The position numbers were made by a program, and so were the translations under genes. DNA of 64,000 nucleotides from the NCBI GenBank assembly GCA_049472355.1, contig JBLIRP010000001.1:26993-90992 (forward strand), given 5' to 3'. This DNA comes from a bacterium. Lineage in GTDB: Bacteria > SZUA-182 > DTGQ01 > JAFGSM01. How positions within the stretch are numbered: position 1 is the first letter of the stretch; every line of letters begins with the position of its first letter. The notes beneath the pieces are model-generated. The model was given only the letters and a program-made list of their open reading frames with translations. It had not been told where the DNA came from and did not search any database. Below are positions 125 through 50,034 of the stretch, in pieces.

Positions 125-706
125 ATGATCAAAAAGCTCAGATCGACACTGTTCGTCCCTTGGCGGTATATTGCGCCCATCCTGTGCATCCCTGTGATTG
201 CCGGGTGCGGGTACCGGGTGCTCAGGCCTGGGCCGCGATCGGCTTCACCCGTCAGCCTCTACGTGAGCCCCATCACAAACCGCACCGCATACCCGGAGCT
301 TGATTGGTGGACGACCGATGCGGTCATCATGGAACTGACCACCTGGCCGTGGATTGCCGTCAGTCGCTCGGAGAACGCCGGGTACACCCTGTCGGGGGAG
401 ATCACCGCATACCGGCCGCATATCCCCTACACCTATGACGGCAACAATGATCCCTTCGAGTACAAGCTGCGGGTGGAAATGTCCTTTTCCCTGAAACAAC
501 AGGGCAATTCAACAGGGGAAGCCGGCGATACGGGTGGGTATTCCCGCGTCGTGCCCCGGCTCGAGGAGGAGGAGATATACCGCGTGGGCACCTCGGACAT
601 GAGCGAGATCAGACGTGCCGAACGCCAGGCCCTGGAACGGGCGATAAAGAGGCTCACCAGAAGGGCAATGGATCATTTCATGGGGATCGGTATGCCATGC
701 AACTGA
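125..706 (+). CDS. lptE: LPS-assembly lipoprotein LptE
   Basis: Signal peptide with lipobox VIAGC, then GYRVLRPG, which matches the LptE C-G-[WY]-x-L-R signature. About 190 aa. Position between leuS and holA is the same as in E. coli. Confidence 0.6.
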   Translation: MIKKLRSTLFVPWRYIAPILCIPVIAGCGYRVLRPGPRSASPVSLYVSPITNRTAYPELDWWTTDAVIMELTTWPWIAVSRSENAGYTLSGEITAYRPHIPYTYDGNNDPFEYKLRVEMSFSLKQQGNSTGEAGDTGGYSRVVPRLEEEEIYRVGTSDMSEIRRAERQALERAIKRLTRRAMDHFMGIGMPCN

Positions 707-3331: not shown

Positions 3332-4555
3332 TTACGGGATATGGTCCCCGGTGCATGCAATGAAGCACCGGCTTACCCTGGGCGCAATCGGCGGCGGTTT
3401 CCTTTCCCCCTCGATTGCCGCTGCTTCTGCGGTATGAAAGGTGAAGCAGCATTCACCGCCTGCCACTCCGTCCAGGTCCCCATCCAGGAGGCGGCCGTAA
3501 ATATCGGCGGCCTGATCGGCAAGGCATACCGTGTAGCAGGTCCCCGGATCAAGCGGCGCATGAGGTACAAATATGCACTCGGAGAGGGCATCCTCCCAGG
3601 TGAAGCGCCCCTGCACAGGGGGAGTGATGCTGAAGGCACGCTCCACCCCATTAAGATCCATGGATTGGCTGAACATGATCCTTATGGACGCGTCGGCGTC
3701 GACCCCTATGGCGCCATTGTAAGGGCTGGTGGATTCAACCGTGGGAACCGCTCCGTACTGAGCGCTGAGCCCTGAGGTATCGAAGGATTCCGGGGACGTA
3801 CCGCCGCCTCCTCCACCCCCCCCTCCGGATGATGCCTCCACTGCCTCCTCTCGCTGGGGAAGGAATCCGTAGGGAAAAGTATCACGAAGGCCTTCAGTTG
3901 AAGGCGTTTTTTGGTGATCCTGAGCGCTTCCCTTGTTGGTCAGCTCGATCACCTTCCTTTCCTTGTTCTCGTTTGTTTGCGGAGCATCCTCGGTCTCCTC
4001 GGGCGGCGCCTCCGTCTCGTCCGTTTCCTCGCCTACGCAGGCAAAGATCCCCGGCTGTGTGTCCCACTCTGCGAAATCATCCATTTTTCGTGAAAACACG
4101 AGTAGACTCTCCGCCTCTTCACAACTGCGACATTTGAATTCAAGATGGAGAAGGTCCGCGGTCGTATCGATGGTCACCGGGGAGACACTGATACCTCCTG
4201 CCCTCAACAATCCCTCGGAGGGGTTCGAGACCTCGAAGAAATCAAATCGGTCCCTTGCCTTGCCGGGAGCGTAATTCACGTATTCGAGGACCGCACTGTT
4301 GAACCGTATCTCAAAACCGAAGGCGGATAATTCCGTGGGGCCGGGGCTGATCATCACCACAAAGCTGACGGTATCCCCCGGTTTTGCACTCCGTGAGCCA
4401 ATCATGATACCCGATTCAACCGGAGAAGAAAAGGGCGTGAACAGCAGAAGGGCCACCATGAAGCAGCCTGTTGCGATGCAAGTCCTTCGAAATTGGTTAC
4501 GCACTGAAGGGATCTCCCTGATGCGGGTGTATGAATCCTGCCGACAATGTCCCAC
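3332..4555 (-). CDS. secreted protein with an N-terminal cohesin-like module, an acidic and poly-Gly linker, and a C-terminal SbsA-type Ig-like domain
   Basis: Hydrophobic signal segment, then a cohesin-like beta-sandwich pattern (GDTVSFVVMISPGPTELSAFGFEIRFNSAVLEYVNY). A G9 run follows. The C-terminal region (SPYNGAIGVDADASIRIMFSQSMD...) resembles the Big_5/SbsA Ig-like fold. Confidence 0.55.
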   Translation of the reverse strand: MGHCRQDSYTRIREIPSVRNQFRRTCIATGCFMVALLLFTPFSSPVESGIMIGSRSAKPGDTVSFVVMISPGPTELSAFGFEIRFNSAVLEYVNYAPGKARDRFDFFEVSNPSEGLLRAGGISVSPVTIDTTADLLHLEFKCRSCEEAESLLVFSRKMDDFAEWDTQPGIFACVGEETDETEAPPEETEDAPQTNENKERKVIELTNKGSAQDHQKTPSTEGLRDTFPYGFLPQREEAVEASSGGGGGGGGGTSPESFDTSGLSAQYGAVPTVESTSPYNGAIGVDADASIRIMFSQSMDLNGVERAFSITPPVQGRFTWEDALSECIFVPHAPLDPGTCYTVCLADQAADIYGRLLDGDLDGVAGGECCFTFHTAEAAAIEGERKPPPIAPRVSRCFIACTGDHIP

Positions 4556-4628
4556 GACTATCCATATTATTCATCAAAAGGGATGGTGTCAATGCCTTTT
4601 TCACTACGATCCGGGCTGCAGTGGAACT

Positions 4629-5240
4629 TCACAGGAGCGTTTCCACAAAGCACAGGCCATATCCGGAATCCTCTCCGAATACGATAGGGTCGTCGAAAAA
4701 CTCGCATGAGGGGGGAGTGTCCAGTGTTCCATTCTCCGTGTCCCAGTCTTCGACGCCATCTATAAGCGTGCAGAGACTGAGATTGCTCGCTGCACATGGC
4801 GCTATCACTGCAAACGTGAGCCTCGCAAGCTCGCCCGATTCCCCCTCGTTGATCCCTGTTCCCTCGCTTGGCGCGATGCCGGCAACCCTTACCACCCCGG
4901 ATTCAGGCGTTGATGCTTCGAACATGTCAAATTGCGCGGCCAGTTCACCCTGTTCAAGGCGCTCGAATTCAAGGATATTCGGGTCGAAGCATATCTCGAG
5001 ACCGAATGCCTCCACGTCATTCGGTGCATCATATACCATGACTGACAATGATACGGATGAATAGGTGATGCCGGACGGCCCCATGTCGAGGGTCAGGGAT
5101 GCCGCAGATGTTGCAGGAGGCATGGCCATAATGGACATAAAGGATATGAACACCAGAAGTGCGAGTGCGACGACCGCTTCGGAAATGGCTGACACCGTAT
5201 TCACAGAGAGCAGAATGTATGGTAGAGAGTCGGAACACAC
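4629..5240 (-). CDS. secreted cohesin-like domain protein
   Basis: Signal and transmembrane segment, then VSLSVMVYDAPNDVEAFGLEICFDPNILEFERLEQGEL, which fits the cohesin module pattern. A paralogous module is present in the adjacent gene. Confidence 0.5.
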   Translation of the reverse strand: MCSDSLPYILLSVNTVSAISEAVVALALLVFISFMSIMAMPPATSAASLTLDMGPSGITYSSVSLSVMVYDAPNDVEAFGLEICFDPNILEFERLEQGELAAQFDMFEASTPESGVVRVAGIAPSEGTGINEGESGELARLTFAVIAPCAASNLSLCTLIDGVEDWDTENGTLDTPPSCEFFDDPIVFGEDSGYGLCFVETLL

Positions 5241-5906
5241 AGTAAATTACCACATTCTTCTTAGGTAGATACACGCAATAGGTCTTTATGCGGCCACACA
5301 CTATGAGAAGTATAATGAAAAAAGGCGGCATAATTTATGATTATATTAAAATTGTAGCGTTTGACGCGGGCTTTTGCAAGTGTTTTTCCACCCCAGCGGC
5401 ATAACGTTAATTTCAACATCTTCTCAAATAGAGATAGCAGAAATGGATTATTGCCGCCGTCCCTGAACTGACCCGGGAATACGCGTCACCGTGCGCCCAA
5501 ATCATGGCGAATGTCCAAACCCACGTCTTTTAATGGACCCCTGCAATGACTCTTTAAGGTTTTACCTGCATGTGCGTATACACAGATAAAAAAGTCCGGT
5601 TCTTCAGGGGAACCCGACGTAATACGTATAATCATAAGATCCCGGAAAACGAATGACCTGAGCGGCGTCACGCTTAATGAAGCCTATGATACGGCGCATG
5701 ATACGAACGCCGCTCAAGTATTTGGCAACCTTGCACCTTGCGCGGTGAAGCTCAAAGTCAGGCCTAGAAGGATTTTCCTTTGTTCTCAATTATAGACCAA
5801 TCATTCATGCTGCTTTATACAATGAGATTCGCGATGGGCATGTGATAATGTCACACAGAATTAAGATGTGCTCAAGATACCGTGTATTGAATGAGGACGG
5901 CCAATA

Positions 5907-6464
5907 TCAGGGAATCATAGTGGGATAGCCACCAAAACCTCCTAATCCGCCGTACGTACCATACGCATTGGTGCTGTAACCGTACCCGAGGCCTGTACCG
6001 TATCCCAAGCCGGTGCCATAGCCATACCCAAGACCCGTACCGTAACCATATCCAAGGCCGGTGCCATACCCGTACCCCAGGCCCGTGCCGTAACCATACC
6101 CAAGACCGGTAGAATATCCAGGGTAACCATATCCCAGACCCGTGCCAAGACCGTAAAGGAGAGAACCCCCTCTGGAGTCGTCAAAATAATCCCAATCATA
6201 CGAGTGGTGGTATTCACCACCCATTATTCCTCCCATTCCGCCCATGCCGCTCATACCATAGCCCGATGGGTAAAATCCGTAACCGTTGTAAGCATAACCG
6301 CCCCATCCATAACCGCCGTAGCTGCTTCCCATGGCGCCGCCCATGCCGCCGCCTCCCTTTCCGTTGGCAATGGCATTATAGTGCATTGCGGTGGTCACCA
6401 GCATAAGCGCTGCCAATAGTGCGATCGCCATGAACAACAGATTTCTTAATCTCATACCAGACAT
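5907..6464 (-). CDS. secreted Gly/Tyr-rich repetitive protein (GLGYGYGT octapeptide repeats)
   Basis: Signal peptide MSGMRLRNLLFMAIALLAALMLV. About 75% of residues are G, Y, M or S. There are six or more near-perfect GTGLGYGY repeats encoded by 24-bp tandem DNA repeats. Confidence 0.55.
   Translation of the reverse strand: MSGMRLRNLLFMAIALLAALMLVTTAMHYNAIANGKGGGGMGGAMGSSYGGYGWGGYAYNGYGFYPSGYGMSGMGGMGGIMGGEYHHSYDWDYFDDSRGGSLLYGLGTGLGYGYPGYSTGLGYGYGTGLGYGYGTGLGYGYGTGLGYGYGTGLGYGTGLGYGYSTNAYGTYGGLGGFGGYPTMIP
5975..6150. repeat. 24-bp in-frame tandem repeat array inside the Gly/Tyr-rich gene
   Basis: Repeating ccgtaccc[a/c]aggcc[c/g]gt[a/g]ccgta... units are visible directly in the sequence. 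Confidence 0.6.
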
Positions 6465-7150
6465 ACCTCCCTCCGTGTAGATTGCCTTAAACTGAATGTC
6501 TCATCAGGCATGTTGAAGGTGTACGATACATGAAAATCATAGAGGCAAATTTTCCTGACAATCACCCCCTTTCTCTGTTCTAAAAGCCGATCCTAACTAC
6601 CTCATTTGTCGTGGTGGATATGGGTAAGATCTGTCTGGTTTGTAAGATTTCTTGATAAATGGACCCCAATCCATCATTCATCTTTTTCGAAATCGATAGA
6701 ATGCAAAAATTACTGTGAGTATTCTTAAATAAGGATCTATAATGAGGGTATTATATTTTCAAATGAATAGGTGATACTTCCCTACAGACTTCCAGATCAG
6801 TATATTCGGATTGTACGGGCCATTTTTTGGTTTATCGACTACCAGTATACCGTTACTGCATATTTTGTCAATATTTCCAAGCGAAATCGATTCACTCGTC
6901 TGTCAAGCCAATGGACAACAAGACTCTCAAACACGAGAACCTCCCCACTATATTTTACAGTATGTTAAAATTAAAATGGTTATCTTCAAATTCGATGAAT
7001 TCCCGCACAATGAACCTGTTAAAGGTGTACACGAAGATGTTCTTCGTGGAGGCATTATTGGAAATGGAGATCATGCGGTGACGAGTGGATCATGATTTCA
7101 AGGAAGCCGCGACGGATGGCAAGAGAAGTTCCGCACGTATGCGGACGCAA

Positions 7151-7912
7151 TCAGGTGCGGGGTGATTCGAGGAGCCTGTAGAGAACGGCCCCGCCAAGGA
7201 CCAGGAGCAGGCTGATCAATTGGGTGAGGTTCAGGTGGCCGATCAGGACGAAGCGCCAGTCGCCCCTGAAGAACTCGACAAAAAAGCGGCCTGTGCCGTA
7301 CAGACACAGATAGAGCGCGAAGATCTGCCCGGATGCACGCCTTCCCTTCCTCAGGATGCTGAACAGGATCAGGAACACGGCGAGATTGGCCAGGGAATGA
7401 TAGAGCTGGGTGGGATGGAGGGCTATCCCCAGGGGAGCCAGGGAATTGGGATTGGTGAAGACTACCCCCCACGGAAGGTCGGTCGGCCTTCCGTAGCAGC
7501 ATCCCGCCATGAAGCACCCCATTCTTCCTATGGCCTGGGCGATGGCAAGGGCGGGGGCAAGGATGTCGAGCGTCTTCCAGAAGGGGAGTGCGTATCGTTT
7601 TATGAGCACGATCGTGGCGAGGACCCCTCCCAGGATGCCCCCGTAGAAAACCAGTCCACCCTCCCACAGCTTGAGTATCTTGAGGGGGTCGTGGATATAT
7701 TCCGCCGGATACATCACCACGAAGAGTATCCTTGAGCCCACGATGCCGGCCAGGATCACGAAGAATCCGAGGTCTGCGAGCTTTGCGGTATCGATTCCCC
7801 TGTTTTTTGCCTGCCTGTAGATAAAGGCGGTGGCGGCGAGAAAGGCGATCGCCAGCGCCAATCCGTAGGTATAGAGGGCGAAGGGGCCTATTTTGAACAG
7901 GACCGGGCACAC
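7151..7912 (-). CDS. lgt: prolipoprotein diacylglyceryl transferase
   Basis: 253 aa polytopic membrane protein. The Lgt signature region is present (GGLVFYGGILGG ... RMGCFMAGCCYGRPTDLPWGV). Confidence 0.85.
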   Translation of the reverse strand: MCPVLFKIGPFALYTYGLALAIAFLAATAFIYRQAKNRGIDTAKLADLGFFVILAGIVGSRILFVVMYPAEYIHDPLKILKLWEGGLVFYGGILGGVLATIVLIKRYALPFWKTLDILAPALAIAQAIGRMGCFMAGCCYGRPTDLPWGVVFTNPNSLAPLGIALHPTQLYHSLANLAVFLILFSILRKGRRASGQIFALYLCLYGTGRFFVEFFRGDWRFVLIGHLNLTQLISLLLVLGGAVLYRLLESPRT

Positions 7913-7918
7913 GGTGAA

Positions 7919-8578
7919 TCAGCCGCCCGGATTCTTCGGCGGATCGAGGATATTTGAAAGCAGGACATCCAATTGCTTGTCCTGAGGCCGCATCTTCTTC
8001 GCCCGCATCAATACCTCACCTGCCTTGTCCGCCTTATTCTGAAGGATGTATATCTGGGCGAGGAGGAGATAGGGTTGGGTCTGGGATGGGTCCTTCTGGA
8101 TCGCCTGGATAAGATACCGAACAGAACAATCGAAATCCTTGAGGCCATAGTAACACAGGCCGATATTATAGGCGAGTCCCCAGGTAAGGTCGCCGTTTTC
8201 TATGACCAGTTGAAAGGAATTGAGCGCTGCCTGCAATTCTCCCTGCGAGAGAAGGATGACCCCCTGAGTGAACAGGGATACCGGATCCTGGGGATTGATC
8301 CGGAGGGATTCTTGGATGTACTCCCGGGCCTTGAGTGTGTCGCCCTGCTGGTGGAAGATCTCGGCAAGATCACGGTATGCGGGCTGATAATCCTCCTTGA
8401 GCCGGACGGATGTCTTGAGGAAATCTATCGCCTTTATCCACTTTCCCGCCTTGAGGGCGTCCTGGGCCTTGAAATAGTATCGCTTCGCCTCCTGACGGTC
8501 GTCGGGGTGCGCCCCGTTTCGATTGGTCTTAATAACGCGCATGGTTTTGATTCTATTTTCCGGTTGCCGTTTTTTCAT
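7919..8578 (-). CDS. tetratricopeptide repeat protein
   Basis: Tandem TPR-like 34-residue repeats (W/LG/Y...A...F/YxxA...P). It sits between lspA and lgt. Confidence 0.65.
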   Translation of the reverse strand: MKKRQPENRIKTMRVIKTNRNGAHPDDRQEAKRYYFKAQDALKAGKWIKAIDFLKTSVRLKEDYQPAYRDLAEIFHQQGDTLKAREYIQESLRINPQDPVSLFTQGVILLSQGELQAALNSFQLVIENGDLTWGLAYNIGLCYYGLKDFDCSVRYLIQAIQKDPSQTQPYLLLAQIYILQNKADKAGEVLMRAKKMRPQDKQLDVLLSNILDPPKNPGG

Positions 8579-9059
8579 CTCTCGCTGCGAACAGATTCAG
8601 AATGACAAGGCCAAGACCGATACAGATCGCCGAGTCGGCGACATTGAAGGCCGGCCAGTGATATTTCCCCACGTAGAAATCAAGAAAATCGACCACCATC
8701 CCCCATCGAAGACGGTCCACCAGGTTTCCGACGGCGCCGCCGAGCAAAAAGGCGATGGCGATTCGCACGGACGGAGCGCTATATGATTTCCAATACACAA
8801 CCACCAGGGCCGCAATGGCGATCAATGAAAAGCCGATAAAGATGATCACCCGCAGGAAGGAGGGGAGGGTGGACATCATTCCGAAGGCCCCTCCTCGGTT
8901 CATCACATAGGTCAGATCAAAAAATCCGGGAATAATGGATATATTCATGCATGGGTGCATGAGCAAGCGGACCAGATATTTGGTCACCTGATCGAGAATG
9001 AGGATCGAGGAGAATATGCCGGCGACCCACAGGTGAATCCCCCTTGAATGTTCCGTCAT
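8553..9059 (-). CDS. lspA: lipoprotein signal peptidase II
   Basis: LspA motifs are present: NRGGAFG and FNVADSAI. The ATG at 9057-9059 overlaps the ileS stop codon (ATGA), as in the classic ileS-lspA operon. The track ORF extends upstream to 9146. Confidence 0.85.
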   Translation of the reverse strand: MTEHSRGIHLWVAGIFSSILILDQVTKYLVRLLMHPCMNISIIPGFFDLTYVMNRGGAFGMMSTLPSFLRVIIFIGFSLIAIAALVVVYWKSYSAPSVRIAIAFLLGGAVGNLVDRLRWGMVVDFLDFYVGKYHWPAFNVADSAICIGLGLVILNLFAARDEKTATGK

Positions 9060-11839
9060 GCTACGACTATCCTGCAACGCCGGCACAGGGTGGGATGCTG
9101 CTCGTCCTCTCCCACACTGGAGCTGAACTGCCAGCAGCGCTCGCATTTTTCCCCCGGCGCCCTTCCGATCTCTATCCGTAATCCCTGAATCTCGCTGTTT
9201 GCGTCGGCCCCGGCTGAAGGCGGCGCATCCTCACGGCATATCATGATGTTCGAGACAATGAGAATGGTCTTGAGGGTGTCCTGATAGGAGGTGAGAAACC
9301 CGTACAGGTCGTCGTCAGTCGTATAGAGGCGTACCTCCACATCCAGGGAATGGCCGATCTCCTTTTGTGCCCGCGCCCTTTCAATGCGTTTTGACACCTC
9401 GCCCCGTATCTCGATGAGCCGATCCCAGCGCCTGGAAAGCTCGATGTCCTGGCATGAATGGTGCACCTCTGGAAATTGGGTCATATGCACGCTTTCCGCC
9501 GTTTCCGTCACTTCGGGGAGGTGTTTCCATACCTCGTCAGCGGTAAAGACCAGTATGGGGGCCATGAGACGATCCATCTCATGGAGTATCTCGTACATGG
9601 TCGCCTGTGCCGACCTCCTTCCCTGGTCGTCCTTTCTTGATGTGTAGAGGCGGTCCTTGGAGATATCGAGGTACAGGGCGCTCAGGTCCACGACGCAAAA
9701 CTGGTGGAGGGTATGGAAGCAGATATGGAATTGGTATGTGGTATACCCCTGGATCAGCCGTTTTTTGATGTCCTGAAATCGATGGAGTATCCACCGGTCC
9801 AGCTCCTCGCGTTCCGGATAGGGGACGGTGTGGGCTGCAGGATCGAAATCGTAGAGATTCCCCAGGATGAAGCGGCAGGTATTGCGGATGCGGCGGTAGG
9901 CCTCCGCCAGCCTGGTGAGGATGTCGTTTGAAATACGGATATCATCCCGGTAATCCTCGGCAGCGACCCACAGACGCAATATCTCCGCACCGTACTTGTC
10001 GATGACGCTCTGGGGTGCGATGACATTTCCTGCGGATTTGGACATCTTCTTTCCCTCGCCGTCCACCACGAAACCATGGGTCAGCACCGCCTTGTAGGGG
10101 GCCTTTCCCCGATTTTCAATTGCGGTAAGGATGGAGCTGTGGAACCAGCCGCGATGCTGATCGCTCCCTTCGAGATAGAGATCGGCCGGCCATTGCAGGT
10201 CTTCTCTCTTTTCCAGGACCGCTGCATGACTCACCCCGGATTCGAACCAGACATCCAGGATGTCGTCCTCCTTTTCGAATTTCCGGCCGCCGCAGTGCTC
10301 ACACCTGGCCCCTGCGGGGAGGAATGACTCGGCAGGCTCGGAAAACCAGATGTCCACCCCGTCCTTCTCAACCCTTTCCGCAATTCGGTCGATCAGCTCG
10401 GGATCCATGAGTGGTTTCTTGCACGAGGCACAATAGAGGATCACCAGGGGCACCCCCCAGGACCGCTGCCGTGATATGCACCAGTCAGGGCGGTTTTCGA
10501 TCATGCCGGCGATTCGTTGTTCCCCCCACTTGGGTATCCATCGCACCGTGCGGATCTCCTCCATGGTCCTTTTCCGGAGTCCGTGCTTGTCCATGGATAT
10601 GAACCACTGCTCGGTGGCCCTGAAGATGACCGGGGACTTGCACCTCCAGCAGTGGGGATAGGAGTGGGAGGTCTTTTCCTGATGAAAGAGGGTCCCGTTT
10701 TCCCGCATGAGCTGGATGATGGGTGCATTTGTCTCGAAGACGTTCTGCCCCTGAAATTCCTTTACCTCGGCGGTGAATGCCCCCCGGTCATCGACCGGGG
10801 CGTATATGTCGAGGCCGTATGCCAATCCGATCTCGTAGTCCTCCTGTCCGTGTCCCGGGGCGATGTGCACGCACCCCGAGCCCTGCTCGATAGTCACGAA
10901 CGGGGCAAGGATGATGCTCGAATTCCGGTCGATAAACGGGTGGCGGCAGACAACACCCTCCAGATCCCTTCCTTGAATGCTCCTCACCACTTCATAATCC
11001 GACACACCCATCCTTCCCATTACATCCTCGAGGAGCGCACCTGCCACGATAAAAAGCCCTTTTCCATGATGCACCAGGGAGTATTCCAGATCGGGATGCA
11101 CGGCGATTGCAAGGTTCGCGGGGAGCGTCCATGGGGTGGTCGTCCAGATGATCACCCATGTGTCCTGGTTCGCTGCCTCAGGGAGTCCCTCGATCAGCTT
11201 GAAACCCACATAGATCGAGGGAGAGGTGTGATCCATGTATTCCACCTCCGCCTCTGCGAGGGCGGTCCCGCAGGAGGCACACCAGTGAACGGGTTTGAAT
11301 CCCTTATATACCGAACCGGCCCTGACGAACTGCCCGAATTCATGAACAATGGTGGCCTCGTAGGATTTGTCCAGGGTCACGTATGGGGTGTCCCATTCGC
11401 CGAAAACGCCGAGACGCTTGAATTCCTCCCTTTGGATGGCAACGAATTTCTCTGCGTATTCCCTGCATTGCCTGCGGATCTCGGTGATATCCATGGTTTC
11501 CTTGCGTGCGCCCAGTTCCTTGTCCACCTGGTGCTCTATGGGCAGGCCATGGCAATCCCATCCCGGTACGAAGGTGGATTGGAACCCTGACATGGTCTTT
11601 GATTTCACGATGATGTCCTTGAGGATCTTATTCAAGGCATGTCCCATATGGATATGACCGTTTGCATAGGGAGGGCCGTCGTGGAGGATGAATTTCGGTG
11701 ATGTCTCAACCCCTTGTTTGATCTTGTCATAGAGCGACATTCCCTCCCAGAGGGCCAGAAACTCCTTCTCCCGCTGATTCAATTGCGCCTTCATGGGGAA
11801 ATCGGTATGGGGCAGGTTGAGGGTGGATTTATAGTCCAT
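9056..11839 (-). CDS. ileS: isoleucyl-tRNA synthetase
   Basis: 927 aa. The HIGH (PYANGHIHMGH) and KMSKS motifs are present, along with a C-terminal zinc-binding CxxC...CxxC tail. Confidence 0.95.
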   Translation of the reverse strand: MDYKSTLNLPHTDFPMKAQLNQREKEFLALWEGMSLYDKIKQGVETSPKFILHDGPPYANGHIHMGHALNKILKDIIVKSKTMSGFQSTFVPGWDCHGLPIEHQVDKELGARKETMDITEIRRQCREYAEKFVAIQREEFKRLGVFGEWDTPYVTLDKSYEATIVHEFGQFVRAGSVYKGFKPVHWCASCGTALAEAEVEYMDHTSPSIYVGFKLIEGLPEAANQDTWVIIWTTTPWTLPANLAIAVHPDLEYSLVHHGKGLFIVAGALLEDVMGRMGVSDYEVVRSIQGRDLEGVVCRHPFIDRNSSIILAPFVTIEQGSGCVHIAPGHGQEDYEIGLAYGLDIYAPVDDRGAFTAEVKEFQGQNVFETNAPIIQLMRENGTLFHQEKTSHSYPHCWRCKSPVIFRATEQWFISMDKHGLRKRTMEEIRTVRWIPKWGEQRIAGMIENRPDWCISRQRSWGVPLVILYCASCKKPLMDPELIDRIAERVEKDGVDIWFSEPAESFLPAGARCEHCGGRKFEKEDDILDVWFESGVSHAAVLEKREDLQWPADLYLEGSDQHRGWFHSSILTAIENRGKAPYKAVLTHGFVVDGEGKKMSKSAGNVIAPQSVIDKYGAEILRLWVAAEDYRDDIRISNDILTRLAEAYRRIRNTCRFILGNLYDFDPAAHTVPYPEREELDRWILHRFQDIKKRLIQGYTTYQFHICFHTLHQFCVVDLSALYLDISKDRLYTSRKDDQGRRSAQATMYEILHEMDRLMAPILVFTADEVWKHLPEVTETAESVHMTQFPEVHHSCQDIELSRRWDRLIEIRGEVSKRIERARAQKEIGHSLDVEVRLYTTDDDLYGFLTSYQDTLKTILIVSNIMICREDAPPSAGADANSEIQGLRIEIGRAPGEKCERCWQFSSSVGEDEQHPTLCRRCRIVVA

Positions 11840-16333: not shown

Positions 16334-18229
16334 TTGGGTATGAGGAGGAAGGATGGTTCACGCCCCCTTTTTGTGTGGAATTGTGTCCTGGCAGTGATTC
16401 TCTGTATGGTATGCCTCTCATGTGCGGCGTGGGCGGATACCTTCGTATGGCAGGACTTCGAATACTGGGATTCCCCAAGAAATCACGGATGGGTCTGCTC
16501 GTCGCCATCCTATCCGGTGTGGGGACCGGTGGGGTACGGCAGCCTTCGGACCGCCATAGACGCGCGCTTGCAGAGCAGGGTCCTGGTGGTCGAGAGCATG
16601 CCCTCCACGTTCAACAACTTCTTCCGCTTCCGCACACTCAACGCCTCGGTCCCCGACCCAAATCCATCCACACAGGGATTCGATAAGAATATCATATCCT
16701 TCAATATCATCAATCGATTCGGGATAGAGCAGTTCGAACAGTGGGAGGCGCAGATACATGTGGAAACCAGAAACGGCAGGAATGTGCTGCTGGTGTATCG
16801 TCCGCGGGGTGCATCCGAGTCGGGGCCCGAGGTGGGCGGTTATGCGGAATACGGGTACAGGGGAGCGATCAATGGGGGGGACCCTGAGCGTTCCGATCGT
16901 CCCCTGGTGGTGATCTACGACATCGGGAGACAATACCAGGACGGCGCATGGCACCTTGTGGTGAGGGATCTTGACGAGGACATTCGGAAGATCGGGATGT
17001 GGCAGGGGATCGATTTTTCCCTTGACGGATTCGGCCAGGAATTGTTTTACGGGCCTGAGCAATCCGCCATCGTCTCCGTCATGTTTGCCGGGTTCACGAT
17101 GAGGGTTGACAATATCGCCTTTCACGACCGCATGCTCGATATCGTCAACCACCCTCCGAAACTCCAGAGGATCGGTCCCCAATTCGCGCAGATATTCGTC
17201 CCCTTCAGCTATCTCATCTCCGTGTATGAACGTTCGGACATGAGCGGTTTCGTTGACGAGCGGTACGAATTCGTTGCGACCATCGGCGGATACGGATACA
17301 GGGGCGTCCAGACCTCCGACATGATCTTCAGGGTAAAGGAGGATCCGAATAACCCGGGACACTATCGTGCCTGTGAGCCGGACGATCCGGCCTGCCTCCC
17401 TGACAAGGTCCTGTTGGAATTTGTTCCCCAGACCTTTGAGGACCTCATCATCACCATACGGGTAACGAATCCGGGAGGGCTTACTGACATGGAGACATTC
17501 CCCCTCTCGGTGGTCAACTATCCGGTGGTCAATCATCCCCCCTACCTCGAGGAGATAGAGAACGATGTCTATCTGCTGGGAACAAACGAGGGATACTTCG
17601 AGAAGTCCTTTATTTGCTTCGACCAGGACATGGAGGATCATCCGGGATCTGCCATGGAGCCCGGAAATATCACCTACCGGGCGATTATCGACACTGCACC
17701 CAATTACCGGTTCGGACCATGGCAGGAGACATTGATCCCCGAGCCTTTCACGCCGGTGATACGATTCAGCCCCCGATTCGAGGGCGTACATCGTATCACG
17801 GTTATTGCCACCGATTCGAGGGGGCTTTTCGCCATAACCGGCTTCACACTGCATGTGGTGAATCCGGGCACATGGCTCAACCACCCTCCGATACTGGGTG
17901 AGGATATCGATAGCCCGCAGATGGTTCGGGTGGGAGAGACCTTCGCCATCCCCGTCGAATTTTTGGACCCTGACAACGAGGAGATATACTATTCATGCAA
18001 CATCGGGAGCATCACCACAATGGAAGAGGGATTCGGAAAGACGCCGGGAAGCAGCATGGGCATCACCGAAGGGGAGGATAGATATGGCAGATACGTGAGC
18101 GGGGCGATCTTTCACTTCGTGTCGCCCTTCCCCGGAACATACCATATCCTTATCACCGCTTATGATCTCAGGGGAGGCTATTGCACGGCCGAATTCATCC
18201 TGGATGTCCAGCCATGGTGGGCACTCTAA
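16334..18229 (+). CDS. secreted NHPP-repeat (cadherin/Ig-like) protein, paralog family member A
   Basis: Signal peptide, conserved DTFVWQDFEYW N-terminal domain, then repeats beginning IVNHPPKLQRIGPQ, VVNYPVVNHPPY and GTWLNHPPI. The C-terminus is ...DVQPWWAL. It shares extensive collinear similarity with the ORFs at 48169-50034 and 57708-59927. Confidence 0.7.
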   Translation: MGMRRKDGSRPLFVWNCVLAVILCMVCLSCAAWADTFVWQDFEYWDSPRNHGWVCSSPSYPVWGPVGYGSLRTAIDARLQSRVLVVESMPSTFNNFFRFRTLNASVPDPNPSTQGFDKNIISFNIINRFGIEQFEQWEAQIHVETRNGRNVLLVYRPRGASESGPEVGGYAEYGYRGAINGGDPERSDRPLVVIYDIGRQYQDGAWHLVVRDLDEDIRKIGMWQGIDFSLDGFGQELFYGPEQSAIVSVMFAGFTMRVDNIAFHDRMLDIVNHPPKLQRIGPQFAQIFVPFSYLISVYERSDMSGFVDERYEFVATIGGYGYRGVQTSDMIFRVKEDPNNPGHYRACEPDDPACLPDKVLLEFVPQTFEDLIITIRVTNPGGLTDMETFPLSVVNYPVVNHPPYLEEIENDVYLLGTNEGYFEKSFICFDQDMEDHPGSAMEPGNITYRAIIDTAPNYRFGPWQETLIPEPFTPVIRFSPRFEGVHRITVIATDSRGLFAITGFTLHVVNPGTWLNHPPILGEDIDSPQMVRVGETFAIPVEFLDPDNEEIYYSCNIGSITTMEEGFGKTPGSSMGITEGEDRYGRYVSGAIFHFVSPFPGTYHILITAYDLRGGYCTAEFILDVQPWWAL

Positions 18230-48168: not shown

Positions 48169-50034
48169 CTAAAAGGTCCACCAGGGCTCCACGTCCAGCA
48201 GGAAGGTCATCACTGCATACCCTCCTCTGATATCGTAGGCGATGATCTCAACAAGATATCTTCCCGGCCAGGGAGTGGTCAGGGTGTAGACCGCCCCGCT
48301 CACGTATCTGCCCTTCTTATCCTCGTCGACGGTTTGGCCGATTTCGCTTTCGGGCGTAATGCCGAATCCCGGTTTCATTTCCGTTACACTGCCGATATTG
48401 CATGAATAGTGGATGACATCACCGTCAGGGTCGAAGAATTCAACGGGGATAAGGAATGTCCTTCCGGCCTTGGCAATCTGGGGACTGTCGATGTCTTCGC
48501 AGAGTATGGGGGGATGATTCAACCAGGTCCCGTAATTTACCACCACCAGGGTAAATTCGGTCACCGCCGAAAGCCCTCGCGGATCGGTGGCAATAACCTG
48601 AATCCGGTAAATCCCTTCGAACTGTGGACTGAAGCTGATTTCAGGCACGCAGGGCACCGGGATGATGGGTTCCTGCCAGGGACCATACTGGTAACTGGGG
48701 AGACCATTAATCAGGGCCGAGTAGGTGATGTTTCCCGGCTCCTCGATCGTACCGGGGATGTCTTCTTCATCCTTGTCGTAGCAGACAAATTGCTTGACAA
48801 AATAGCCCTCGTTGCTCCCCAGGATATAGACGTCGTCCTCGATCTCCTCAAAATAAGGCGGGTGGTTCTCCACCGGGTAATTGACCACCGACAAGGGAAA
48901 GGTTTCGATGTCCGAGAGGCCTCCCTCGTCCACCACCCGGATGGTCACTATGAGGTCCTCGAAATGCTGGGGGACAAACTGCAGCATCACCTTGTCCTTG
49001 GCGCATGCGGGATCGCTATTCGCACACAGGATATAGGAGCCGGCATTGTTCGGGTCCTCCTTGACACGGTGGATCAAATCGGTGGTCTGAATGCCTTGGG
49101 AGCCGTATCCCCCTATTGTGGCGAGGAATTCGAGCCTTGACTCGTCTGAGGCGCCGGTGAGCTCGATATCGGTGGCGGTGATGAGGGTGCTGAACGGCAC
49201 GAAGAGCTGGGCATACTGTGGTCCGATCCGCTGCAGCTTGGGAGGATGGTTGATGATATCCCCCAATGTATCGTGAAAGGCGATATTATCAACCATCAGT
49301 TGATACCCCTTCAGCATAATGGAGAGTATCCGTGATTCACCGGGGCCAAAAATGGACTTACCGAATCCGTCCCTGTCGGTGTCGTCCATTTCGTACCCCA
49401 AAGCCATGGCTACATCCCGGTCCAGGTCTCGAAGCACCAGGTGCCAGGTCCCATCCTGATATTGCCTGCCCAGTTCATACACATAACCGGGGGGATCCAT
49501 CCTTCCACTAAATATGTCCCCGGGTCTTCCCTCGTAGGGTATAGGACCTGACTCACCCTGGCCTACCGGGCGATAGATAAGATTGACCTGCTCACCCTTA
49601 CGGGACACGAGGAATACCTGCACCTCCCATTGATCGAACCACTCTATGCCGAACCACATGCGAATATTGAATGAGATGATACTCTTGTCGCTGATGGGAT
49701 CTCCATTGGGGTAGGTGACGGACTCATTCCATGCAAAAAATGGATAGAATTGATTCAGGTGGGACATCATGCATTCATAGAGAAGGACCCTGCTCTGCAA
49801 TCCCGGGTCGATCACCGTGGATATGCGCCCGAATCCGGTATAGGGGCACCATCCGTAGACCGGATAAGGGGGACAGGAGCTCTTCCACCCATAGGTGCTC
49901 GGTGCATTCCAGTACTCAAAATCCTGCCACACGAAGGTATCTGCCCGGGCGCCGGGTCCGGTCAGCAGAAGGTGGAAGCATGCAGCCATCATACATACGA
50001 TGACAACGAGTACGAATCCCCTCTTTTTCACCAT
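48169..50034 (-). CDS. secreted NHPP-repeat (cadherin/Ig-like) protein, paralog family member B
   Basis: Signal peptide, DTFVWQDFEYWNAPSTYGW, IINHPPKLQRIGPQ, VVNYPVENHPPYFEE and GTWLNHPPI. The C-terminus is ...DVEPWWTF. Collinear with members A and C. Confidence 0.7.
   Translation of the reverse strand: MVKKRGFVLVVIVCMMAACFHLLLTGPGARADTFVWQDFEYWNAPSTYGWKSSCPPYPVYGWCPYTGFGRISTVIDPGLQSRVLLYECMMSHLNQFYPFFAWNESVTYPNGDPISDKSIISFNIRMWFGIEWFDQWEVQVFLVSRKGEQVNLIYRPVGQGESGPIPYEGRPGDIFSGRMDPPGYVYELGRQYQDGTWHLVLRDLDRDVAMALGYEMDDTDRDGFGKSIFGPGESRILSIMLKGYQLMVDNIAFHDTLGDIINHPPKLQRIGPQYAQLFVPFSTLITATDIELTGASDESRLEFLATIGGYGSQGIQTTDLIHRVKEDPNNAGSYILCANSDPACAKDKVMLQFVPQHFEDLIVTIRVVDEGGLSDIETFPLSVVNYPVENHPPYFEEIEDDVYILGSNEGYFVKQFVCYDKDEEDIPGTIEEPGNITYSALINGLPSYQYGPWQEPIIPVPCVPEISFSPQFEGIYRIQVIATDPRGLSAVTEFTLVVVNYGTWLNHPPILCEDIDSPQIAKAGRTFLIPVEFFDPDGDVIHYSCNIGSVTEMKPGFGITPESEIGQTVDEDKKGRYVSGAVYTLTTPWPGRYLVEIIAYDIRGGYAVMTFLLDVEPWWTF

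Follow-up and report, generated by a model that had tools for sequence, protein, structure and literature searches.

A pair of putatively exported single-cohesin proteins in a diderm bacterium and the cohesin subfamily around them

Two neighbouring genes, referred to as A and B throughout, were analyzed in a 64,000-nucleotide stretch of bacterial DNA (contig JBLIRP010000001.1 of assembly GCA_049472355.1, positions 26,993 to 90,992 of the forward strand), which is called the window below and to which all positions refer unless another locus is named. Both genes lie on the minus strand, and each encodes one cohesin module, a beta-sandwich that serves in protein docking. Gene A (3332–4504) codes for a protein of 390 amino acids (aa), in which the cohesin module is followed by an acidic and glycine-rich linker, an immunoglobulin (Ig)-like domain of the Pfam family Big_5, and a short tail with a Cys-Phe-Ile (CFI) motif. 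Gene B (4629–5240) codes for 203 aa with a single cohesin module. That both modules are homologous to cohesins is settled at the sequence level. By analogy with the larger subfamily to which the modules belong, our preferred reading, which we hold with modest confidence, is that both proteins are exported to the cell envelope and serve there for docking or as adaptors, each of which would bind a partner encoded elsewhere, probably through a dockerin-type module. An earlier note on this DNA had described the pair as adjacent minus-strand genes; both open reading frames (ORFs) were recovered at the same positions, and the peptide strings quoted from them were found in the translations.

Cohesin modules of A and B and their subfamily

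The modules of both proteins scored above the gathering score (24.1 bits) of the Pfam family Cohesin (PF00963), with 32.6 bits for A (E = 1.1e-7, residues 52–148) and 26.3 bits for B (E = 9.7e-6, residues 61–151). The same family was detected in P0061 and P0062, which are distant orthologs of A, with 27.1 and 23.3 bits, respectively. The cohesin module of A spans positions 4025–4426 and that of B positions 4689–5111 (both minus strand). Both were matched over their full length by two profiles: profile A1, which consists of seven A- and B-family modules (224 bits for A and 198 bits for B), and profile A6, which consists of 44 diverse subfamily modules including A and B and has 132 positions (136 and 132 bits, respectively). 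Compared directly, the two modules share 31% identity (E = 1e-14).

Searches of the PDB became more conclusive with the breadth of the query. As a single sequence, the cohesin part of A had no match in the PDB, and B found the CipA cohesin 3kcp with weak similarity (E = 0.13). Profile A1 yielded 16 weak matches, ten of them to cellulosomal cohesins (best E = 0.013). With profile A6, 45 matches were obtained, almost all of them cohesins, and the best one covered profile positions 6–105 of 132. The top matches were 5nrk (E = 1.2e-8), 6kg8 (3.3e-8), 4ums (5.4e-7), and 1g1k (9.9e-6), and scaffoldin cohesins of type I are among the best matches. The profile also matched 2xdh (E = 9.2e-5), which was deposited simply as ‘Cohesin’ and presumably is the cohesin of Archaeoglobus fulgidus. 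As the subfamily profile matches almost exclusively solved cohesins, we regard the homology as settled. The modules were thus not placed in an unrelated beta-sandwich family, and the assignment of true cohesin modules to both proteins, which the earlier note had based on sequence patterns, was upheld by the Pfam scores and by the best PDB match of the subfamily profile. In the A6 alignment, A and B retain all near-invariant positions of the cohesin subfamily, whose signature comprises AFGF..., RVGG, and L.DD...W. A pair of cysteines in the cohesin module is common to the A and B families of the window.

The size of this subfamily became apparent when profile A1 was run with HMMER in an exhaustive search of 1.84 billion cluster representatives: 1589 of them matched at E ≤ 1e-3, of which 683 reached E ≤ 1e-10. 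According to the domain count, two to seven tandem modules are present in many of the top 150, and these were confirmed as Pfam Cohesin. Dockerin-like repeats were found in at least 48 of the 156 top proteins, usually as a Cys-rich module of two repeats directly after the cohesin, and Pfam Dockerin_1 was confirmed in P0018, P0037, P0047, and P0051. Eighteen of the 156 top proteins end in a hydrophobic, transmembrane-type stretch followed by an Arg/Lys tail (PEP-CTERM-like), and other members carry a sorting domain of the type IX secretion system (T9SS), as exemplified by the match of P0057 to TIGR04183. Judged from these architectures, the subfamily is a widespread, non-cellulosomal and surface-associated cohesin–dockerin set of environmental bacteria, much of it diderm. 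Cohesin and dockerin proteins have been reported in metagenome-assembled genomes (MAGs) of Cloacimonadota (PMC8542988), and the passage concerned refers to Peer et al. 2009 (FEMS Microbiol Lett 291:1) for the occurrence of non-cellulosomal cohesins across all three domains of life. The earlier note had implied that cohesins in a Gram-negative genome were unexpected. This surprise did not survive the comparison with the 1589 representatives, many of which bear T9SS domains or transmembrane stretches with Arg/Lys tails typical of diderms, and with the precedent in Cloacimonadota: because the subfamily is widespread and much of it diderm, Gram-negative cohesins are not surprising in themselves.

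Two further observations concern relatives of A and B. Ten subfamily members share an unexplained C-terminal tail ending in ...FGY, which in the multi-cohesin proteins P0011, P0014, P0016, P0019, P0029, P0031, P0080, and P0109 takes the form ...LEFY.A.L..EM....G.Y.Y..FGY. This tail had no match in Pfam or NCBIfam and might likewise serve in sorting or interaction. In addition, the distantly related locus L008 (2506–4239, plus strand) on a low-GC metagenome contig encodes a 184-aa protein, which consists of a signal peptide, a cohesin, and a single C-terminal dockerin-like repeat, together with a 391-aa protein ending in DLNHDGQVNLGDAIYIIKGL. The arrangement resembles a minimal gene cluster of cohesin and half-dockerin.

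Within this large subfamily, the type represented by A and B is rare and patchy according to the homologs retrieved. Word-seeded searches of 5.8 billion proteins retrieved five homologs of A (P0001–P0005) and four of B (P0006–P0009), all of them from MAGs or metagenomes. A scan of genome contigs identified one GTDB species representative carrying A, and a metagenome scan added two loci, one of which was informative. The exhaustive search contributed the distant A orthologs P0061 and P0062 (35–41% identity), which have the same architecture as A, that is, Cohesin, linker, Big_5, and a short tail with an invariant C-F-I. The B protein of the related locus L001 is 62% identical to that of the window, and a positional counterpart of B is present also in locus L005. 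A and B are each 36–41% identical to other subfamily members versus 31% to one another. Therefore, the pair did not arise by a recent tandem duplication, and as A and B are not each other’s closest relatives, their binding partners probably differ.

Leaders, linker, C-terminal tails and the search for a partner

The reading frame of A is open up to a GTG at 4555 (3332–4555; 407 aa counted from this first GTG), and the NCBI model of A (P0001) begins at M33 of this long ORF. We consider the GTG at 4504 (MRNQFRRTC...) the most likely start, because P0003 and P0004 begin with a Met at the aligned position (alignment A5) and because a Shine–Dalgarno-like GGGAG is located 8 nt upstream. For B, the most likely start is the GTG at 5240, which matches the MRS... 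starts of P0007 and of the ORF in L001. The leader of A, MRNQFRRTCIATGCFMVALLLFTPFSSPVESG (4409–4504, minus strand), has a basic N-region and a hydrophobic core followed by VES/G. The leader of B (5100–5240, minus strand) has a long N-region and a 19-residue hydrophobic core, AVVALALLVFISFMSIMAM, followed by PPATSAA/S; its AASLTLDM junction is retained in P0007, P0008, and L001. This leader probably acts as a signal peptide for Sec or as a signal anchor. These long hydrophobic cores followed by small residues bear out the N-terminal hydrophobic leaders that had been noticed on both proteins before, and from them we infer Sec export of A and B. A lipobox ([LVI][ASTVI][GAS]C) is not conserved in A, since the window protein has ATGC and its orthologs lack a Cys at this position (alignment A5), and in B no Cys lies close to the predicted cleavage site. 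Hence, neither protein would be a substrate of Lgt and LspA.

Downstream of its cohesin module, A continues with a linker (3746–4024, minus strand) that contains the acidic stretch EETDETEAPPEETEDAPQ, the conserved motif ENKERKVIELTNKG, a run of nine glycines (G9; nt 3800–3826), and the conserved ESFDTSGLS. The Big_5 domain follows at 3440–3745 (minus strand; residues 271–372) and matches Pfam PF13205, the SbsA type, with 49.1 bits (E = 1e-12; gathering score 23.6). Close to its end lies an invariant YGRxxDGDxD...GG (alignment A5). Big_5 was also detected in P0061 and P0062, and in the PDB this domain of A showed weak similarity to the Ig domain found in L,D-transpeptidases (E = 0.11). The acidic linker, the G9 run, and the SbsA-like Ig domain, by which the longer protein had been said to differ from the shorter one, are thus all present.

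Both proteins end in a short tail with a conserved Cys-Phe motif. The tail of A (3335–3439, minus strand), which ends in IAPRVSRCFIACTGDHIP, contains the residues C380-F381-I382 (Cys codon 3365–3367), which are invariant even across orthologs of 35–41% identity (alignment A5). The A family has three invariant cysteines, two in the cohesin module and this one in the tail. The tail of B (4632–4706, minus strand; Cys codon 4650–4652) ends in FFDDPIVFGEDSGYGLCFVETLL and is conserved as ...GLCFV(E/G)TL(L/F) in P0007, P0008, and L001. In the B protein of L005, the cohesin module lacks cysteines, and the only ones are found in the tail, which ends in ...STLCFFNCLN. Six-frame translation of the window and loci L001–L006 yielded 521 fragments of 80 aa or more, in which a CF[IVF] motif occurred 12 times within the last 25 residues, each time in A or B, versus approximately 2.7 cases expected by chance. 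The conserved CF[I/V/F] tail is the one unexplained feature of these proteins. As a candidate explanation, the B motif (A/G)LC[IF][FV]xx[YL]L was compared with DALC[IL]FxKYL in the dockerin-like half-repeats of relatives; an origin of the B tail as a decayed dockerin half-repeat was rejected, as the register differs, no Ca-binding loop is present, and A and B gave no match to the dockerin profiles.

The tails resemble the CFI-box, a putative sorting motif described by NCBIfam model NF041763, which has 14 residues and a cut-off of 15.9 bits and which recognized a canonical CFI-box test sequence. The tails of A and B in the window did not match this model at E ≤ 10. The tail of the ortholog P0062 reached 13.4 bits (E = 0.045, model positions 8–14) and that of the relative P0079, which ends in GGCFISASFN after a choice-of-anchor U domain, reached 9 bits; both scores are under the cut-off. 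Neither A and B nor the neighbouring Gly/Tyr-rich protein described below matched any NCBIfam family, and a literature search for the CFI-box returned nothing. On these scores, the likeness of the A and B tails to the CFI-box is a lead and not a membership. The tail might be a minimal, hitherto unrecognized signal for sorting or covalent attachment, a short relative of the CFI-box that fixes single cohesins to the envelope of a deep-branching diderm lineage, or else the tail or the linker of A might replace a dockerin as the ligand of the cohesin. We regard this pair of ideas as unlikely; if either were true, the result would be a dockerin-independent cohesin system.

The search for a dockerin covered the 64-kb window and about 65 kb of related loci, approximately 130 kb in all. 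A regular-expression scan of the window found no dockerin, and a Pfam search of nine other window proteins, mostly predicted to be secreted, did not find one either. The statement in the earlier note that no dockerin partner lies in the window was corroborated by these searches and by custom hidden Markov models (HMMs). The search for additional cohesin modules that it had proposed was carried out for the window with profiles A1 and A6 and recovered the modules of A and B and no others.

The reading that we prefer places the partners elsewhere in the genome. A and B would be exported by Sec into the envelope, where each would present one cohesin and, by analogy with the subfamily, dock a different protein partner. 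The flexible acidic and glycine-rich linker of A and its Big_5 domain may serve as a spacer or as a wall- or S-layer-type contact, and the shared Cys-Phe tail may act as a retention or attachment signal or as an interaction element. Several points weigh against this proposal. Two HMMs built from the dockerins of relatives had no match when the window and loci L001–L006 were translated in all six frames. None of the NCBIfam sorting-signal models was reached by the tails of A or B, and in diderm bacteria a protein exported by Sec alone stays in the periplasm. Moreover, an alignment to CipA of Clostridium thermocellum shows that the AFGF motif puts Ala and Gly at the positions of CipA Asn37 and Asp39, which we take to contact the dockerin; the binding chemistry is therefore not transferable. 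Finally, AlphaFold2 models computed from shallow alignments of five (A2) and four (A3) sequences reached a mean predicted local distance difference test (pLDDT) score of 36.6 and 28.2, respectively, which is too low for judging the nine-stranded jelly-roll beta-sandwich expected of a cohesin.

Some of the same observations would fit a different role of the cohesin fold. In a lineage without dockerins, A and B could be structural or adhesive components of the envelope, for example associated with an S-layer or binding matrix or glycans. The lack of a dockerin in the window and the related loci, the SbsA (S-layer) type of the Ig domain in A, and the loss of conservation at the presumed CipA contact positions are consistent with such a role, and genomes with cohesins but without dockerins have reportedly been found. 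However, A and B keep the near-invariant positions of a subfamily that very often bears dockerins on the same polypeptide, and the negative dockerin search pertains to about 130 kb of these genomes. We therefore consider a dockerin-independent role possible but doubtful.

A and B might also form a self-contained complex, in which the cohesin of B binds either the linker motif ENKERKVIELTNKG or the CFI tail of A, or in which the tail cysteines join both proteins. The genes are adjacent and probably co-transcribed, both tails contain a conserved Cys, and the B protein of L005 has cysteines in its tail only. In addition, the linker motif ENKERKVIELTNKG (3872–3915, minus strand) is kept in the A proteins of the B-bearing loci, namely the window, L001, and L005 (there SNKKKKVIELSNKG), and is degenerate in locus L003, where A occurs without B at the site. 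This hints that the linker peptide could be related to B. The correlation, however, rests on a single B-less locus, and a B gene could lie elsewhere in that genome. Furthermore, L003 has A without an adjacent B, and A can therefore be kept there alone. Taken together, we judge a self-contained A–B complex quite improbable.

Gene neighbourhood of the pair

The GC content of the A and B genes (0.54–0.59) is in line with that of the surrounding genes. A promoter-like sequence, TTGCAA-17-TACAAT (5351–5379, minus strand), was identified upstream of B by a consensus scan, which also placed TTGACA-17-TAATAT (4564–4592, minus strand; 10 of 12 matches) between the stop of B at 4629 and the GTG of A at 4504. 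In L005 the gap between B and A measures 30 bp only, which makes co-transcription of the two genes also plausible. About 170 bp upstream of B (5241–5400, minus strand) can be aligned with L001, and the remaining spacer between lgt and B is unalignable. The conserved block contains the TTGCAA-17-TACAAT site and a leader of approximately 110 nt and, by its sequence conservation, may be a regulatory leader. Rfam had no match anywhere in the window, including this block.

Pfam confirmed LptE (125–706, plus strand), LGT (7151–7912, minus strand), and signal peptidase II (about 8553–9062, minus strand) in the vicinity, so that the diderm background proposed in the earlier note was borne out. Other neighbours confirmed by Pfam are DNA polymerase III delta, class II fructose-bisphosphate aldolase (fba), and a TPR protein. 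Locus L001 (GCA_049472315.1) has the same gene order as the window, ileS-lspA-TPR-lgt-B-A-fba-holA-lptE-leuS, and loci L005 and L006 show the order B-A-fba. L003 (GCA_975972645.1; IleS 67% identical) shares the housekeeping block, and its slot contains A without B, together with two BcrAD/HGD-D genes in reverse orientation. Locus L009 (IleS 72% identical) keeps ileS-lspA-TPR-lgt-fba with lgt and fba 155 bp apart and contains neither A nor B. In this comparison of gene orders, the interval between lgt and fba is a variable insertion site and the A/B pair an accessory insertion in a conserved housekeeping block. Since the slot is variable and empty in L009, the proximity of A and B to lgt, lspA, and lptE looks incidental.

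The product of a third gene on the same strand (5907–6464) is a secreted protein of 185 aa that is rich in Gly and Tyr and has a signal peptide and approximately 4.5 copies of the 8-aa unit GTGLGYGY (24-bp period). The gene is located within a low-GC segment of about 1.25 kb (0.36–0.47) inside 5250–7150, and this segment is missing between lgt and B in L001. The gene was not called in L003, L005, and L009, its product has no Pfam or NCBIfam family, and tblastn against plasmids gave no match. As L001 lacks the segment and the gene was not called in the other loci, the Gly/Tyr-rich gene falls outside the conserved unit.

These data bear on the proposal of the earlier note that A, B, and the Gly/Tyr-rich protein form a surface scaffold functionally tied to lgt, lspA, and lptE. 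It is true that all three proteins have hydrophobic leaders and are encoded on the same strand within 3.2 kb. The Gly/Tyr-rich gene, however, is absent or not called in the related loci as detailed above, L009 keeps the housekeeping block with lgt and fba adjacent and without A and B, and the slot of L003 holds the unrelated BcrAD/HGD-D genes and A alone. Moreover, A and B lack a conserved lipobox and thus would not be Lgt/LspA substrates. The scaffold idea, including both the participation of the Gly/Tyr-rich protein and the functional link to the outer-membrane genes, is thus largely refuted by synteny and in our view highly improbable.

The BcrAD_BadFG/HGD-D pair of L003 (7929–9697, minus strand) is of the 2-hydroxyacyl-CoA dehydratase activator type and occupies the slot between lgt and A on the opposite strand. 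IleS of the window is 58–60% identical to its nearest named relatives, which belong to Thermodesulfobacteriota, Deltaproteobacteria, Nitrospinota, and Nitrospirota; the source lineage is a diderm group, as LptE, Lgt, and LspA are present, and possibly lies near these taxa. Elsewhere in the window, two paralogs (16334–18229, plus strand; 48169–50034, minus strand) encode secreted proteins of 631 and 621 aa, which are 58% identical, share the mature N-terminus ADTFVWQDFEYW..., and have no Pfam match. In L009 and L010, a protein of 622–633 aa without Pfam match adjoins a CarboxypepD_reg protein upstream of ileS. These proteins of 621–633 aa may be a lineage-specific conserved surface family.

Comparison with known systems

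The pair adds a small and well-defined family, secreted proteins of the type Cohesin + Big_5 + CFI tail that are often paired with a cohesin-only protein, to the cohesins found outside cellulosomes. It also draws attention to a large subfamily whose members in environmental diderms usually go together with Cys-rich dockerins and surface-sorting tails. In practical terms, the gain is modest: the modules are candidates for orthogonal cohesins, and the short Cys-Phe tail is testable as a sorting or attachment signal. Despite the neighbouring genes, the results have no bearing on outer-membrane biogenesis.

In its C-terminal half, A resembles the SbsA-type Ig proteins, as residues 271–372 match Big_5 with E = 1e-12, whereas it differs from these in having a single Ig domain that is joined to an N-terminal cohesin. 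Like the CFI-box proteins (NF041763/NF041770), A has an invariant C-F-I near the C-terminus of a secreted, surface-type protein. In contrast to them, however, the motif in A and B is followed by 4–11 residues only, the 69-residue CTERM domain is absent, and B carries CFV or CFF instead of CFI.

With the type I cohesins of clostridial scaffoldins (CipC of C. cellulolyticum, 1g1k; CipA of C. acetobutylicum, 6kg8; CipA of C. thermocellum, 1aoh and 1ohz), the modules of A and B are homologous over strands 1–8. Such cohesins are among the best PDB matches, and the alignment contains no large insertion. However, the similarity to A and B is low, with single-sequence E-values of 0.1 or worse, and the A/B subfamily has its own signature and a Cys pair. 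The difference from a cellulosome scaffoldin is larger still in architecture, as A and B are single-cohesin proteins, with two modules in the window in total, and neither carbohydrate-binding (CBM), X, S-layer homology (SLH), or dockerin modules nor nearby dockerin-bearing enzymes accompany them. Based on this domain content, A and B are not cellulosome scaffoldins.

The closest parallel is offered by the non-cellulosomal cohesins, such as 2xdh and those of Cloacimonadota (PMC8542988). A and B differ from these in that they are single-cohesin proteins for which no dockerin was seen in the DNA searched, and in that the combination of Cohesin, Big_5, and CFI tail was found in only a handful of MAGs and metagenome contigs. 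What they have in common with them is that they are, by prediction, secreted proteins with a Cohesin module and no sign of a cellulosome, here in a diderm background.

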